Positions 7,534 through 25,786 of a DNA stretch of 25,786 nucleotides are shown in pieces; the stretch's first letter is position 1; every line of letters begins with the position of its first letter. The translations under genes were made by a program, and so were the position numbers. The stretch is taken from positions 1 to 25,786 of IMG/VR virus record IMGVR_UViG_3300037419_002575; one strand, 5' to 3'. Origin of the DNA: a virus (Duplodnaviria > Caudoviricetes). The notes beneath the pieces are model-generated. The model ran no database searches. It saw only the letters and a program-made list of their open reading frames with translations, and was not told the DNA's origin.

Positions 7534-8209
7534 AGAAACCGCCAGAGTCCAGGTACAAATCGTCTTCGGGCAGCGTTGTAATCGTCGGATAGTATTCGTT
7601 CGAAGTTACCTTTTCCTGCCCCTTCAATTTCTGGACCTTCTGGGTGTAATCCTGACTCTTCAGGTCAACCATCCAGAGGTTTTCGTCCATTTCGTACGCC
7701 TGCTTCAGGACGTACGAAACCACCGGCTCGAAATACCTGTCAGGGACCGACAAATTGTCCGTCAGTGTTGAAACGGTAGGGGGGTATTTGGCGTAGTAAA
7801 TTTTCAGGCCCGACGTGATGGACTGATTTGGCGTGGGGAAAAGCGTAATCGTTCCGCCGTACACCATGAAAACCTCGGGAGTTCCGCCTCCAAAACCACC
7901 CTGGGAAGTGGTGGCCTTGAAACCGTCAAGGTATTCATTGAACTGCGCGAAACTCAAGCCACGCAGCCTGAAATTGTTGTACATCAGGGAACGCAAAACG
8001 TTCAAATCGGCGGGAGAGCTATAATCCGGCTGCCCTGCTACGATATCCGCTGACGCTACCGTTTCGAGCAATTCCTCGTTGTCGGTGGCAATTGCATTCT
8101 GGGCAGCGTTCACCCAGGCAAGAATATCGGAATCCTTGATTTGAACCGAGTCATCATCACCAAATGTGCGTCGTACTCGGTCGCTCACTTGCTGGACGGT
8201 GAATGTCAA
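7526..8209 (-). CDS. Head-tail adaptor / tail tubular protein A-like (227 aa)
   Basis: DILAWVNAAQ helix, ITLFPTP and LKIYY motifs typical of podovirus adaptor proteins; TTG start; synteny. Confidence 0.75.
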   Translation of the reverse strand: MTFTVQQVSDRVRRTFGDDDSVQIKDSDILAWVNAAQNAIATDNEELLETVASADIVAGQPDYSSPADLNVLRSLMYNNFRLRGLSFAQFNEYLDGFKATTSQGGFGGGTPEVFMVYGGTITLFPTPNQSITSGLKIYYAKYPPTVSTLTDNLSVPDRYFEPVVSYVLKQAYEMDENLWMVDLKSQDYTQKVQKLKGQEKVTSNEYYPTITTLPEDDLYLDSGGFYG

Positions 8210-8642
8210 TCAAATCACCCCGGTGATTATAAAGCTTGTAACTGCTTTTGTTGGACCTGGCGATGGCGGCAGCCATTTCACGAGATTCTTGGCGGCGTTC
8301 ATGATTGATCTTGGCGTTATAAATTTCCTTGGCACGATTGTAATCGTCGAGCCAAGAGAGCAGGTTGCCACCTTTATTGGCCTGCTTGGCATTGAAAACG
8401 TTCGCAAGAAGTCTCTCGTCAGCCTCCATCGCTGTGCAGACCAAATATGGATGACCGTTGCGTGGGAAACAGACGACTCGAAATGGTTCGTCTTTTTCGT
8501 TTCGCCGTCCCGGAGGAATCCACTGAAGCTGCAAATTAGGATCGAAGTCCTGTAGGATTTCATTGACCCTGCGCTGCTTCTCAGAAATCCAATTGCCGTC
8601 ATTCGTGGGAAAGTAAATGTGCCCGTCGTCAGTGAGATCCAT
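8157..8642 (-). CDS. Hypothetical protein (161 aa)
   Basis: TAA-ATG coupling to the upstream gene; 53-nt overlap with the adaptor gene. Confidence 0.7.
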   Translation of the reverse strand: MDLTDDGHIYFPTNDGNWISEKQRRVNEILQDFDPNLQLQWIPPGRRNEKDEPFRVVCFPRNGHPYLVCTAMEADERLLANVFNAKQANKGGNLLSWLDDYNRAKEIYNAKINHERRQESREMAAAIARSNKSSYKLYNHRGDLIDIHRPASERPSTTHIW

Positions 8643-9128
8643 TTAGTTGATCCTCGTTGCGGAAATCGTGGCAGCGTAAATTGAACCAGCCGTGGACGCA
8701 CCATTTGCCTTAATGGCAATTGTGCCATTACCGTCGTACCGGAAAACGCGACGGTTAATTCCACCGGCACCAGCCGTTCCCGCAACACCATTGATAATGC
8801 GGCCAACGCTGGCGCCATTAACGAAAAGCTCCATATTGTCGATTTCGACGTTGGCGACGGTTGTGCCACCAATGAAAGCATGGAGTTCAATTTCATAGGT
8901 TCCCTGAGCCGGAACCGTCAGGGTTGCAATTGTGGTGCCAGCGGTCGGAGCGGCCTGCTTTCCAGTGTTGAAAGTAGAAGTTGCTCGCGACGCCACCGGA
9001 ATTGAACTTTCAATTGGTACGCCCTGATCGGCAGCTCCAAGACCTGAAACCTGAATTGCATAGCGTCCGGCATTTTGGTCAACGGTTACAAGTGCGCCAG
9101 CAAGTTTGTCATTGATGGAACTCGCCAT
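8643..9128 (-). CDS. Small beta-rich virion protein, possible capsid decoration (161 aa)
   Basis: GGAGG RBS; Gly/Ala/Thr-rich; first gene after the major capsid gene. Confidence 0.65.
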   Translation of the reverse strand: MASSINDKLAGALVTVDQNAGRYAIQVSGLGAADQGVPIESSIPVASRATSTFNTGKQAAPTAGTTIATLTVPAQGTYEIELHAFIGGTTVANVEIDNMELFVNGASVGRIINGVAGTAGAGGINRRVFRYDGNGTIAIKANGASTAGSIYAATISATRIN

Positions 9129-17414: not shown

Positions 17415-18719
17415 TCACACTGATGTTCCGTATACGGTTGTGCCGACTGCGTATTGAACGCCACCCAAATGAATTATTGTGGGGTCGGCGGTCCCACCGA
17501 ATGCCCTGACTGTGGGATTTGCAGTGGGGGTGTCTGAAATGTAAATTCGTGCGCCCTGGTACGCGTTCAAATTGGTACCATCGGTGCCGACTGAAAGCGT
17601 TTCGTGCCCGAGCATGTAGGCGCCTTTGAGGCGTGGGCGAATTCCGTCGGGCAGGGGATCGAAAAGGTTGTACGACGTGTTGCGTGTAATTGCACCCGTT
17701 GAGGGGCCGACGGTGCCGCGCCAGTAGCATTTACCCCTGTTGTCGAGGGCAATTGCAAATGGCTTTCCGGCAACAGCTGTGAGGGTCCACCCTGAAATAG
17801 CCATGCAACTATTCGGGGGAGTGATCCAGGGTGAAATGGCGTCGTGAATGGGCCGCCAGAACCAACCCCAGTTCGCATCCTTGCAGACCAAAATGTAAAT
17901 GGACTTCGTGTCGGTTTTGTAGAACCGATCGCCCAAATCATAGTCGCCGGACTGGGGGAGTGTGGTACCTGAATTTGGAGCTGTCGCCTTACGAAGCTTC
18001 TCGTAATTGTAGTTAATCCAGGTTTCGATGTCGGACATGTAATCCGTCTGGTCGGCGATATTCAATCGGTATTGCGGCGTCTGGCTTGCCCCGCCACCCA
18101 AATTGTTCGCAACGCTGGCAATTGCTCTGACGTAGCGATAGAACTCTTCGGTGCGAGTTCCGGTTTCACGGCTGGATCGCGTCCAGTCCGGAGTGAAGAA
18201 ATTGGTTCGCTGCTGGGTGGAAAGTTCAAGCTGCACACCGGCCAGGCGTCGGTTTTTGTTGGTAATATTGGTCGGATCGGAGCCATCCAATTCGGATGTT
18301 CCCGTGGAGGCATTGAAACCAGCCGCCGTCAAAGCTGCAATGACGGCATCACGATTTACCGTGTCCAAACCACCGACATAGGTTTGAGGCACGCCGGGGG
18401 TAATGTCAGCCATGCCGTGAAAACTGAAGCAGTAATTCGAATTGCCCACCATATCAAGAGCGGTGGGTTCATCAAAATTGGTTGACGTAATGTGCAGTTC
18501 ACCATTGTTGCTGGGGCGCAGCGCTTCGAAGCTGTAGAAATTGTGCCTACAGAATGCGGCGACACCGGAAGCCAATTCGGTGGTACCAATTTCAATGCCG
18601 CCGCCGTGAATGGCAATTGAAATGGCCGATGACCGCTGCTTTCGAATGTCGAGTCGCCAATCAACACCTTTAACCGTCGCTGCGGCCAGTGCTGCAAAAT
18701 TGGCGTAGAGGTCCGCCAT
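17415..18719 (-). CDS. Tail-associated protein with N-terminal poly-gamma-glutamate hydrolase (PghP/DUF867-family) domain (434 aa)
   Basis: AIHGGGIE.GTTELA, FYSFEA, LHITSTNFDEP, SFHG and GVQLELS are the PghP-type Zn-peptidase motifs; the C-terminal half is tail-fibre-like. Confidence 0.85.
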   Translation of the reverse strand: MADLYANFAALAAATVKGVDWRLDIRKQRSSAISIAIHGGGIEIGTTELASGVAAFCRHNFYSFEALRPSNNGELHITSTNFDEPTALDMVGNSNYCFSFHGMADITPGVPQTYVGGLDTVNRDAVIAALTAAGFNASTGTSELDGSDPTNITNKNRRLAGVQLELSTQQRTNFFTPDWTRSSRETGTRTEEFYRYVRAIASVANNLGGGASQTPQYRLNIADQTDYMSDIETWINYNYEKLRKATAPNSGTTLPQSGDYDLGDRFYKTDTKSIYILVCKDANWGWFWRPIHDAISPWITPPNSCMAISGWTLTAVAGKPFAIALDNRGKCYWRGTVGPSTGAITRNTSYNLFDPLPDGIRPRLKGAYMLGHETLSVGTDGTNLNAYQGARIYISDTPTANPTVRAFGGTADPTIIHLGGVQYAVGTTVYGTSV

Positions 18720-22583: not shown

Positions 22584-23084
22584 TCAGACAAAACTGTCAG
22601 ACCAATTTGAATCTATCAGGTCGTACTTTTCGAGTATCTCGCGAATTTGTTTCGGCATGGTCTTCTGAATTCCGTCCTCATACTTTGAAACGAGGTCGGG
22701 GTGCACGCAGAAGTCATTCGCAAATGCCATCGGGCTCGGCCAGTAGCCACTGCGCCAGTTTTCAAAAAGCTTGTTGCCGGGCGTCGCGTCGTTCTGGCGA
22801 ATCAACTTGTGCGGTCTAATTTCCTCGACCGTCATTTGGCGCTTGAGCTTTTGAAATTCAACGTAGCGCTGCAAAGTACTCTGGGGTGTCCATCCCATTG
22901 CATTCGCCACCCAACGCAAAAGTGCCGGGTTCAAACTGCTATAGGTGCCCTGCTCGGCTCGCGAAAGGTATTGCTTACTCAAGCCAAGTCTTTTACCAAG
23001 TGCGCTCGAACTAAGCGCCAACGCCAAACGTGCTTCAACAATTGGGTTTGTGTATGACCCGACATAACTTTGGTTGACGGCCAA
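22584..23084 (-). CDS. XRE-type HTH transcriptional regulator, possibly two HTH units (166 aa)
   Basis: ARLALALSSSALGKRLGLSKQYLSRAEQG and a second SPMAFANDFCVHPDLVSKYEDG; TTG start after AGGGAGGG. Confidence 0.75.
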   Translation of the reverse strand: MAVNQSYVGSYTNPIVEARLALALSSSALGKRLGLSKQYLSRAEQGTYSSLNPALLRWVANAMGWTPQSTLQRYVEFQKLKRQMTVEEIRPHKLIRQNDATPGNKLFENWRSGYWPSPMAFANDFCVHPDLVSKYEDGIQKTMPKQIREILEKYDLIDSNWSDSFV

Positions 23085-23400: not shown

Positions 23401-23676
23401 ATGGTCGCGATTCTTCTGAGCCTGGTTCTCTCGATCCTGGGTTTCATTTCGACCCCGACTCAGAACGTGGTCACCATTCCTGCCATGCCGCAGTACTCGC
23501 CCGAGGTCGCGGAGGAAATCGAGTGGTTCGAATTCCATGACCTGGCCGTCGCCGAATACGAGGCTGAATTCACCGCGCTGTTCAACAGCTACGAATTCAA
23601 GCAAGCGAAGAATGGCGCGCCGATGATTCGTCGCCAGGGTGAGAAGTCGTTCAAGTTCGTCGCTCGCGCAAAGTAA
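23401..23676 (+). CDS. Hypothetical protein with hydrophobic N-terminus (91 aa)
   Basis: GGAGGG RBS; GC3-rich codon usage; first gene after the rightward promoters. Confidence 0.75.
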   Translation: MVAILLSLVLSILGFISTPTQNVVTIPAMPQYSPEVAEEIEWFEFHDLAVAEYEAEFTALFNSYEFKQAKNGAPMIRRQGEKSFKFVARAK

Positions 23677-23720: not shown

Positions 23721-24023
23721 ATGTTCGACGCAAAGATCGTCGTTTCGTACAATTCGTACCTGGACGAGTACGAAATGCCCAGCCGCACCTGGGACACGTT
23801 CGACTCATTCTTCGAGTTCATCGAGCAGATCACCGCTGTCCGCGAATTGGTCGTGGCGCAGCTGAAATACTCCGTCGACTACCATTTCGTGATGGAGGCA
23901 AAGCTCAGGGTCTACTTCAAGGGTGAGCACCTGGCCACCGAAAACTTCCGGCGCGAAGGCGATCAGGTCCGCACCTGGCACAATTCGCTTTCGCAGGTTG
24001 CCAGCATTCAGGCACTGCTCTAG
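23721..24023 (+). CDS. Hypothetical protein (100 aa; start revised to 23721)
   Basis: GAAAGGTGA RBS before the ATG (MFDAKIVV); GC3-rich codons; followed by a terminator. Confidence 0.75.
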   Translation: MFDAKIVVSYNSYLDEYEMPSRTWDTFDSFFEFIEQITAVRELVVAQLKYSVDYHFVMEAKLRVYFKGEHLATENFRREGDQVRTWHNSLSQVASIQALL

Positions 24024-24031
24024 GCGCAGCG

Positions 24032-24072
24032 AATTGGTCAGCCGATCCCCCAGTCGGCTGGCCAATTTTTTT
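24032..24072 (+). terminator. Intrinsic terminator
   Basis: AATTGGTCAGCCGA-tcccccag-TCGGCTGGCCAATT-TTTTT, 8 nt after the TAG. Confidence 0.85.
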
Positions 24073-24082
24073 GGGCGTGGCT

Positions 24083-24129
24083 GGAAATGCGAGTGGAATT
24101 TTGGTGCCCAGTCGCGATCGCTGTACATT
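24083..24129 (+). promoter_or_regulatory. Repeat-associated promoter, copy 2 (predicted to drive the ncRNA candidate)
   Basis: GGAAATGCGAGTGGAATTTTGG (24083-24104) runs into TTGGTG-N17-TACATT. Confidence 0.55.
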
Positions 24130-24135
24130 GGTCCA

Positions 24136-24464
24136 TGTCAGCTGGTGGTGACGCCGTCTGATCACAAGTGAATGGACCCCGAAGCTTCAAATCGGGCCGA
24201 TGTCGAACCTTGAGAATTCAATAGCGAGCGAAATTCGAATTCCCCGAACGTTGTGAAACGTGCGCGGCATTCACAGATACATTGGTCGGAAACCCATTTG
24301 GCCACCGAATTGGTAAGTCGGAAATTGCCTTCCCTGCTGAGAAAACATGGCATACCGCATAAGTCGAAACTACCAATTCAATGGTCAGCCAAACAGGTCC
24401 GACGCGCGTAATTCGGAACGGATCGTTATGTCTAACAAGGTTCCCCGTAAGTCCACGCAGCTGG
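24136..24464 (+). ncRNA. Candidate large structured ncRNA (~330 nt), family not recognised
   Basis: At least eight nested long-range helices with G-U pairs valid on the plus strand; 5' end coincides with the predicted start site; no credible ORF. Confidence 0.65.
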
Positions 24465-24500
24465 GGTTTCAGAGGATGACAACGAATTGCGCGCATTACC

Positions 24501-24711
24501 CAACCATTTTCGGCGACGCCTTTAGGCGTAATCCCCGATTATGGTTGACCCAAAACTTGACAACGGATCACTAAGCATGCGCTTAGTCGGTTCGAGTTTG
24601 GGCGCATTCAATTCTTTACCATTGGTGCGCCCATTCTCGGTCCCATGGCCGACCCTCTTTGGTAGACTCATCCATGGGAAGCAACCGAAACAGACTCGAC
24701 CCTGAAAGGGT
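24501..24711 (+). other. Further structured modules (two hairpins, a three-way junction, an RBS hairpin)
   Basis: CAACCAT/ATGGTTG enclosing ACGCCT/AGGCGT; CTAAGC/GCTTAG; TCGAGTTTG/CAGACTCGA enclosing two stems; ACCCT/AGGGT over the RBS. Confidence 0.5.
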
Positions 24712-24718
24712 GGCCATC

Positions 24719-25786
24719 ATGGCTGAAACGCAGACGAAGACTCTGTCGGACTACTTCGAGGCAGTGTCGCCTGTTCTGCCGGAGGCGGCTGTTAAGCCTC
24801 TGAAGGATCAGATCTCGGCTTACACGGACCTGGTGACTCAGGTCAACAAGTGGATTGCTCAGGTGAATGCGGCGAAGGCGCAGGATCCTTCGAAGCCGGG
24901 TTACACGGATTACCTGGACCGGCTTTGGAAGACCGAGCAGGAGCGCGGCAATTCGCTGGTCAAGGAAATCGCAGATCGTTTCGACGCGATTGCGGAGGAG
25001 TACGAAAAGCTCAACAAGCAGCTTCGTGAAATCGCGAAGGCCAATTTCATCCCCGAAGAGCTTTCGGAGGAGAAGGCCAAGGAGACGAAGGCAAATGTGA
25101 ATGCGGCGCAGCCGACAATCGCCACGACGCGGGACACCATCAAGGCGCAGATGATGATGGTTGAGTCTGTGCTCACCATGCAGAATGTGGCACTGCCCGA
25201 GGGTGGACTGATTTCGCTTCTGCCCGAGGCCGATTCACTGAAGTCCGGTCGCGGTCGAAAGGCAGCGAGCTCTTCGGGTGGAACTCTTTACATGACGCGA
25301 GTCGATGACGTTTTCATCGATGGCGAATCCACTCGCACCGAAAAGGGTGGCAAGTTCAATTACGCCGCTGATGTTCTCTCCAAGAAGTTTGGTGCTGCGC
25401 AGCACCCGGAGAATGCGGTAACTGCCGAAGAGCTGGAGGAGGCGTACCTCAATCAGTTTGGTTACGCCGACCGCGCAGCTTCGAAGGCGGATGGTGAGGC
25501 AAAGCTGCCCCAGGAGTACGAATTCACCTTCACGAAGGAGACGGTGAAGACCAACCCGAATGACGGGGAAAAGGTCAAGGCTCCGATGATGGTTACCGTG
25601 AAGGTGATTCGCCCCGAGTCGAAGGCAAAGACGGAGGACGATTCCGCGAAGGCCACCGACGAAAAGCCTGCCGACAATTCGGCCAAGCCTGCCACGCCCG
25701 AGCCGCTCAAGATTGACACGCGGACCGAGGCCGAAAAGACGGCGGCCAATTCGAAGCCTGCTGAGGTTCCCGCCCCCGCAAAGAAG
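24719..25786 (+). CDS. Hypothetical protein, >356 aa, runs off the right edge (absent from ORF track)
   Basis: GAAAGGG RBS; the frame MAETQTKTLSDYFEAVSP...EVPAPAKK is open to the edge; helical N-half, KSGRGRK motif, Ala/Pro/Lys/Glu-rich tail. Confidence 0.88.
   Translation, partial: MAETQTKTLSDYFEAVSPVLPEAAVKPLKDQISAYTDLVTQVNKWIAQVNAAKAQDPSKPGYTDYLDRLWKTEQERGNSLVKEIADRFDAIAEEYEKLNKQLREIAKANFIPEELSEEKAKETKANVNAAQPTIATTRDTIKAQMMMVESVLTMQNVALPEGGLISLLPEADSLKSGRGRKAASSSGGTLYMTRVDDVFIDGESTRTEKGGKFNYAADVLSKKFGAAQHPENAVTAEELEEAYLNQFGYADRAASKADGEAKLPQEYEFTFTKETVKTNPNDGEKVKAPMMVTVKVIRPESKAKTEDDSAKATDEKPADNSAKPATPEPLKIDTRTEAEKTAANSKPAEVPAPAKK

Follow-up and report, generated by a model that had tools for sequence, protein, structure and literature searches.

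In a 25,786-nt stretch of DNA from a virus of the Caudoviricetes (IMG/VR record IMGVR_UViG_3300037419_002575, positions 1 to 25,786, referred to as the window from here on) we have found a gene-free leader, located behind a predicted early promoter, that contains on the plus strand at 24204-24228 a sequence matching the boxA region of actinobacterial ribosomal RNA (rrn) leaders, i.e., a boxA-like element (24204-24215) and an adjacent putative NusA site (24215-24225). This is the sole leader element found in all nine loci that we have compared. The reading that we prefer, with a probability of roughly 0.55, is that the leader would act in cis, loading the Nus factors of the host with no need for an N protein of the phage, and would carry swappable RNA modules. 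The use of boxA by phages is known from the lambdoid nut sites, which require the N protein, and if our reading is true the leader would be a protein-free route to nut-like antitermination through a host-type rrn boxA. No description of boxA in actinophage leaders was found in the open-access literature (subscription papers and supplements aside), and the available text of PMC5513430, 10.1101/2025.11.21.689395 and PMC5712189 does not contain the word "antitermination", nor that of the latter two the word "boxA".

The window covers about half of a podovirus-like genome and carries the lysin, terminase, portal, capsid and tail genes on its minus strand. The capsid protein shares 40-42% identity with its counterparts in Microbacterium phage Shocker, Cellulosimicrobium phage DS1 and the Arthrobacter Jasminevirus phages. 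We infer that the source is a soil phage of an actinobacterial host (Actinomycetota). It is solely the version of boxA that suggests Streptomyces; a search with the lysin named no host (best matches 26-28%), and the GC content of the window is 0.53 vs. 0.68-0.74 in the flanks of five candidate hosts. The leader is located at the start of the plus-strand genes, and its counterpart in Jasmine, a podovirus with 1,330-bp terminal repeats (available text of PMC5513430), is found where the genome ends and the leftward operon begins. Four further DNA runs differ at one position alone (T24278C), outside the helices. Elsewhere on the minus strand, a poly-gamma-glutamate hydrolase domain (17415-18719, Pfam E 9e-57) lies between the lysin cluster and the terminase, suggesting a polyglutamate-coated host or habitat. 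Also on this strand are two adjacent 161-aa ORFs (8157-8642 and 8643-9128), and a 228-aa ORF read in a different frame (8210-8896) overlaps both of them; none of the three had a PHROG family match.

Relatives were reached through a repeated promoter-like motif together with the family of the protein encoded downstream. There were eight distinct loci besides the window (L008, L010, L011, L013, L014, L135, L140 and L142); L001, which is 99.7% identical to the window, and L012, which does not differ from L013 over 2100 nt, were excluded as non-independent. Searches of loci with single proteins returned L001, the near-copy of the window, or nothing, and neither blastn of the region nor the downstream protein gave a match among cultured phages. 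All nine Jasminevirus-like loci have the same layout, i.e., a terminator-like hairpin, the P2 promoter motif, a gene-free leader, more promoter-like sites and the same early gene, and the whole of it is also seen in Cellulosimicrobium phage DS1. The leaders are ca. 165-470 nt long and modular, with modules gained, lost or swapped between phages; three of them are merely 165-197 nt long and contain nothing like the rod-shaped fold described below, and in L140 boxA has almost no RNA behind it. As for a small protein encoded in the leader, the longest plus-strand ORFs (in the window, 75 aa at 24347) were not common across loci.

The early region of the plus strand starts with a predicted promoter, P1 (23310-23356), recognized as a repeat of the P2 motif (GGAAACGCGAGTGGA, with a -35-like GGACA and a -10-like TAGGCT). 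It precedes the first early gene and is present in eight of the nine loci, the sequence of L014 being too short. The first early ORF (23401-23676, 91 aa, hydrophobic N-terminus) had no match in PHROG, Pfam or the Atlas; we considered it as an N-like protein and rejected it, given that its N-terminus is hydrophobic and that it occurs in loci lacking the hairpin that we call module B. A second early ORF without family (23721-24023, 100 aa) is followed by an intrinsic terminator-like hairpin with a U tract (24031-24072, z -4.89, 0 of 200 shuffles as good), which divides the leader from P1 transcription; the relatives also have a hairpin and a T run before P2. The predicted promoter P2 itself (24082-24137) was located by motif alignment, with the TGGAAATGCGAGTGGA motif, a -10-like TACATT at 24124-24129 and a predicted start at about 24136-24137; the motif, a TA..T hexamer and a TGT at the predicted start align in 9/9 loci. 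Downstream of the leader there are two more predicted promoters on the plus strand, whose motifs recur in the relatives, P3 (TTGACA, 24557-62) and P4 (TAGACT, 24663-68), the latter followed by GGGAAGC (24676-82), which stands ahead of the early gene in all nine loci. For P1 to P4 alike, promoter function is what the motifs suggest. The original prediction had placed the RNA in a transcription unit of its own, and its 5′ half holds, with a strong terminator (z -4.9) and a conserved promoter-like motif ahead of the leader; for the 3′ half, no plus-strand terminator-like site was found beyond the RNA in the window. Two minor observations concern the promoter motif: a 22-nt promoter-upstream motif is common to P1 (23310-23331) and P2 (24083-24104) and has related forms in DS1, and in Jasmine both of these positions are taken by another repeated motif.

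The segment 24204-24228 is identical at 20 of 25 positions to a Streptomyces rrn leader (10 of 12 in boxA proper), a match with a binomial expectation of 6e-4 for the window. The exact letters of the NusA site are presumably those of the 11-letter ligand in the mycobacterial NusA-RNA structure. The element lies ca. 70 nt past the predicted P2 start, in untranslated RNA, and its context is promoter-proximal (the promoter being predicted), sense strand and untranslated in 9/9 loci. In E. coli the recruitment of NusB-S10 by boxA seeds a complex that resists termination, and NusB of B. subtilis binds boxA-like RNA (available text of PMC13753749). The main contacts of NusB within boxA are G2, C5 and C/U6 (PMC3177189, available part), and in the rrn leader of mycobacteria NusA binds specifically to the sequence distal to boxA (PMC2724277, likewise). 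The window has G2, C5 and C6. Over the nine loci G2 is found in seven, C5 in four and a pyrimidine at position 6 in all, and the back half of the element (AAYUVAAYA) is kept in 9/9; phages Adat and Casserole retain the motif as well. At positions 3-4 the window has AA and the hosts mostly UU; AA at both was seen in none of 120 fetched host copies, though the search pattern left these positions free. The motif is unpaired in the consensus fold and partly paired in single-sequence ensembles.

A 19-letter pattern taken from the window matched about 12,000 GTDB stretches, nearly all of them Actinomycetota among the matches listed. From 120 host loci fetched, 18 full-length ones were checked by Rfam and 17 had a 16S gene downstream of the pattern; the 16S start was at most 400 nt away in 45 of the 47 loci with at least 300 nt of downstream sequence. 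The hosts carry a second boxA copy before the 23S gene, and these spacer copies mostly have G5. A model trained on six phage loci ranked next the three held-out phage sites and both Jasmine terminal repeats, and it found five of five host leaders and three of five host spacer copies, all weakly (E 0.1-4). Conversely, a matrix built from hosts had its top match at the boxA site, on the sense strand, in 9/9 loci, and also at boxA when the Jasmine and DS1 genomes were scanned in full, a result that is partly circular because the host leaders were fetched with the window-derived pattern. With a matrix made from spacer copies only, the boxA site came top in six of the nine loci and second in two, the site of the window fell outside the top two, and most scores were within the null range. 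The resemblance to an rrn leader comprises the identity, the distance from the predicted start, the untranslated setting and, in the window itself, G2, C5 and C6. The differences are that the match is one of sequence, in a predicted phage transcript with no rRNA after it, that positions 3-4 diverge, that the conserved hairpin lies here 3′ of boxA and that there is no conserved leader-trailer duplex. A direct demonstration of rrn antitermination in Streptomyces or Arthrobacter was not found in the accessible parts of the literature.

In the hosts the boxA word also forms a 21-bp duplex with the spacer that follows the 16S gene (-29 to -32 kcal/mol, 4/4), so that Nus binding is not the only possible reason for its being conserved there. 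By analogy, the word might be in the phages one strand of a pre-rRNA-like processing stem that pairs with 24423-24443 and from which RNase III frees modules B and C. The window does contain a partial complement, whose duplex with boxA (-17.2 kcal/mol) is reached by 10 of 300 shuffles, but the duplex is interrupted and outcompeted by another stem (module D), and in all five relatives where the test could run it was no better than shuffles. We consider a processing stem scarcely probable. As no such duplex partner is conserved among the phages tested, a single-stranded protein site is favoured.

Sites of this kind were also found in cultured phages. Blastn queries with host boxA sequences against INPHARED matched 111 and 71 phage records; among the matches listed, 53 of 60 and 55 of 60 were actinophages with the match in the early sense (minus strand). 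These 53 and 55 were either located in a terminal repeat or no more than ca. 1.5 kb away from the right end, and 50 of the 53 and all of the 55 overlapped no annotated feature. The matches are singly weak (E 0.002-5) and include duplicate records, and their weight appears to lie in the agreement of position and strand. In Bongo, phiScoe2, Alma and Dennebes the motif falls within a gene-free stretch ahead of the first leftward gene; example records are L157 (1087-1112), L158 (1393-1422), L159 (686-710) and L160 (1090-1116). In many cultured phages of Streptomyces, Mycobacterium, Gordonia and Arthrobacter the boxA word would stand near the start of the predicted transcript of the leftward early genes, with the cluster A mycobacteriophages Alma and Pioneer among the matches. 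The boxA matrix gave none at the early leaders of Shocker, ctEqG8 or L5. Alma and Dennebes each have a second, weaker boxA copy upstream. Leaders with boxA occur in both podoviruses and siphoviruses, with phages of Streptomyces, Mycobacterium, Arthrobacter, Gordonia and Cellulosimicrobium among them, and cultured phages such as Jasmine, Adat, Alma, Bongo and phiScoe2 offer tests. They provide a handle on the role of actinophage early leader RNAs and on whether the actinobacterial rrn boxA works through Nus factors.

The original prediction, made from the letters of the window, was of a single rod-like RNA of ca. 330 nt at 24136-24464. Its seven long helices are indeed complementary where they had been placed and make up the minimum-energy structure of that segment. 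Neither tRNA nor tmRNA was found by ARAGORN in the window, as had been anticipated, or in 11 loci. The expectation of a novel RNA also agrees with Rfam, which had no match in this region when the whole window was searched at E<=5 and nothing in the loci of five relatives; 24130-24480 searched alone at E<=10 had one 9-bit match, against a gathering score of 88. However, the fold of all 329 nt is weak when compared with shuffles (z -1.56, 5 of 100 equally good). The minus strand of 24136-24464 folds better (z -2.65), so that folding energy alone cannot choose the plus strand, for which G-U pairs had been invoked; it is the covariation of modules B and C and the layout in 9/9 loci that support it. 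The four outer helices (24138/24453, 24205/24436, 24221/24423 and 24234/24410) disappear on extension. If the fold ends at 24500 or 24556, their 5.7-9.9 expected pairs shrink to 0.0-0.4, since 24404-24415 now forms 10.5-10.7 expected pairs with 24483-24494; with no plus-strand terminator after the RNA, there is no reason to end the fold at 24464. The inner part with its three helices (24285-24403) holds up well (z -3.7, none of 200 shuffles as good) and covaries, except that the TGCC/GGCA pair drawn at the tip is favoured neither by folding nor by covariation, which have instead TGC 24326-28 with GCA 24357-59. The RNA is indeed structured, though not as a single rod of 330 nt, and what survives of the functional structured phage RNA that had been proposed are covarying modules in a promoter layout shared by 9/9 loci. 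The boxA-like motif, present in every one of these loci, had not been part of the original prediction.

The rod had been likened to 6S or Ms1 RNA, i.e., to a decoy of RNA polymerase with a central bubble mimicking an open promoter. Ms1 has ca. 300 nt, a central bubble and terminal hairpins, similar in outline to the fold of 24136-24464, and its homologues may evade sequence and Rfam searches (available text of PMC9130861); the boxA-trailer duplex of the window, better than all but 10 of 300 shuffles, would also fit a closing stem. We nevertheless find a decoy of this type highly improbable. The long closing stem that it needs is lost on extension, is deleted in a contig described below and in the five relatives tested is no better than shuffles, there is no Rfam match to 6S or Ms1, and three of the nine leaders (those of 165-197 nt) have no rod at all. 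The likeness amounts to the length and the outline of one predicted fold, set against an RNA that is modular and whose closing stem is neither conserved nor stable. A scaffold for the downstream protein, also suggested at the outset, has no support, since the gene occurs in loci without the rod and the protein fold had no match.

Comparison with the relatives divides the leader into modules on the plus strand. Module A (24137-24199) consists of variable 5′ hairpins. Six of the eight relatives have before boxA a stem-loop like the T-arm of a tRNA, absent from the window, made of a stem, UGCA, a 5-bp T-stem, a UUYGAGU loop and then GG (L008 4127, L011 4465, L014 699, L135, L140 2575 and L142). 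Judging from its sequence it could be a mimic of a tRNA T-arm or minihelix, and might serve as a processing mark. Module B (24237-24272), located 3′ of boxA, is a two-helix stem-loop with the cap ACGUU-GUGA-AACGU (GNRA loop). It is found in six of the nine loci, with compensatory changes in 6 of 12 pairs and 94% of cells paired, counts that come from six sequences and from a structure predicted on the same alignment. A pseudoknot between the GUGA loop and a downstream UUCAC, noticed by eye, was discarded, as in the consensus fold the bases concerned are taken up by the outer helix of this module. Module D (24404-24494) is a stem-loop closed by a 12-bp helix, weak by energy (z -1.3), that competes with the outer helices of the rod.

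Module C (24285-24403) is a 119-nt irregular rod ending in a three-way junction (z -3.7). It is present in five of the nine loci. In its three close versions 20 of 39 pairs are compensated and 96% of cells are paired (three sequences, with the structure predicted from the same alignment); none of 500 shuffles paired as well, and slid controls had 26-39% of cells paired. A model of the module recovered L010 and L011, both outside the training set, at 41 and 37 bits and gave no match in L008, L014, L135 and L140; L008 was scored as lacking the module because it has the CUUCCCUG word alone and the model with filters off returned nothing. A 991-nt contig of a relative from run X12 (a single contig, depth ca. 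5) keeps 24279-24404 with two differences, while 24143-24278 are replaced and 24405-24498, close to the extent of module D, are missing. Module C is thus a compact covarying RNA of no catalogued family (no Rfam match), and in its modelled structure the two invariant pyrimidine-rich strands left unpaired, CUUCCCU (24329-35) and AUACC (24352-56), look like its working surface. The module bears what we take to be a likeness to 16S h7-h9 or to 5S rRNA. A mimic of either was rejected, the model having no match in five rrn loci with full 16S; against five actinobacterial genomes (E<=10) it also had none, in a search that lacked a positive control.

The unpaired CUUCCCU of module C could pair with GGGAAG at the start of the P4 mRNA, making the module an antisense element that tunes the translation or stability of the early gene. 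CUUCCCUG stands at the tip in the window, L010, L013 and L142 (in L008 as a word), and GGGAAGC precedes the early gene in 9/9 loci, giving a complement of 6-8 nt; covariation is not visible because neither side varies. However, phages that lack module C also have GGGAAGC, and the word is absent from the module C tip of L011; we think this function very unlikely.

In our preferred reading of a cis-acting leader, the host polymerase would start at P2 early in infection, and the nascent boxA with its adjacent site would load NusB-S10, NusA and NusG onto RNA polymerase, which would become termination-resistant without a phage N-type protein. The long, untranslated, low-GC RNA would be shielded from Rho, and read-through would proceed into the early gene, perhaps past two tandem terminators beyond. 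In enterobacteria Rho and H-NS silence foreign DNA, and boxA is capable of promoting termination as well (available text of PMC12360218). The early gene could also be transcribed without boxA, since P3 and P4 lie downstream of it. Module B may act, by analogy, as a boxB-like helper hairpin. The order of boxA, spacer and GNRA-type hairpin resembles that of lambdoid nut sites, as does the position on a predicted early transcript upstream of tandem terminators; different are the host rrn type of the window boxA, the absence of the hairpin in three of the nine loci and the large extra RNA modules. As to an N-like arginine-rich protein, the adjacent ORFs had no family match, in a window that holds about half of the genome.

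Modules A-D would fold independently and likely outlast the message, and they are most likely cargo persisting as stable RNA pieces, by analogy with the Pleft leader of phage L5. The cluster A Pleft RNAs (L5, D29 and StarStuff) also have a long ORF-free leader, a strong early promoter and a location at the genome end, according to the available text of PMC5712189. In L5 and D29, the same text describes this leader as the most abundant phage RNA, with ca. 90% of transcripts ending after ca. 500 nt; it is processed and toxic, and one part of it is not deletable (a further source on D29, available in part, is 10.1101/2025.11.21.689395). The L5 leader ends near a T-arm-like hairpin at 51157, similar to that of six of the eight relatives of the window, and within cluster A, Alma and Pioneer are examples of phages with the boxA word. 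On the other hand, the virion type is unrelated and L5 has no boxA by the matrix.

These parallels suggest that the P2 RNA might act mainly in trans, as a very abundant stable early RNA whose boxA sequesters NusB-S10 or NusA and so deprives the rRNA synthesis of the host of them, with module C binding or decoying another host factor. The terminator isolates P2, and the next gene could be transcribed from P3 and P4, in which case the leader might not be needed in cis; module C has moved as one block in the run X12 contig, and Alma and Pioneer, both named in the available text of PMC5712189, bear boxA matches. However, there is no terminator-like site 3′ of the RNA in the window, L140 has a boxA with almost no RNA behind it, the toxic example L5 is without boxA by the matrix, and the first target of a nascent boxA should be the very polymerase that transcribes it. 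We see a mainly trans-acting RNA as the chief alternative but rather unlikely, although it is compatible with a cis-acting leader and both can hold. Also offered tentatively, and rather unlikely as a whole, is a wider proposal that many actinobacteriophages of unrelated virion types would hijack rRNA antitermination by means of a copied boxA and without any protein of their own, that the leader, once protected, launches swappable functional RNAs, and that module C is a new family freed as a stable RNA for host takeover or as a decoy. If true, it would account mechanistically for the abundant early leader RNAs found in those cluster A mycobacteriophages that bear the boxA word.

Between the leader and the early gene, a palindrome without a U tract after it (ACGCC-TTTA-GGCGT, 24516-24529, plus strand) is present in eight of the nine loci. 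It is separated from the -35 of P3 by 27-28 bp in four loci and by 38-43 bp in the other four, two spacings that differ by about one helical turn, and its sequence and position make it possibly a DNA operator upstream of P3, perhaps for the HTH protein encoded at 22584-23084 on the minus strand. The interval between P3 and P4 (24556-24700) folds strongly (z -4.35), with stacked hairpins over the -10 region of P3, and contains a TAAGCAT..GCTTAG palindrome; several relatives have one. The early gene that follows (24719-25786, plus strand, truncated by the contig end) belongs to the P0001 family, which has ca. 23 members (22 relatives among the matches listed). The protein is modelled (pLDDT 70, pTM 0.36) with a helical N-domain, a basic linker (RGRKA) and an alpha/beta C-domain, and the model had no match in PDB or BFVD at E<=0.001, the Atlas search being empty too. 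The Jasmine terminal repeat encodes an Lsr2-like protein near the counterpart of this gene, on account of which a counter-silencing role for the P0001 protein is conceivable. In the four relatives with sequence beyond the early gene there are two terminator-like hairpins after it. Past these tandem terminators, a gene-free region of ca. 500 nt conserves the GACTGAAAGGAGTGTC word in 4/4 relatives (at approximately L009 6880, L010 6764, L011 6746 and L013 6532), and might be an origin or a regulatory RNA.
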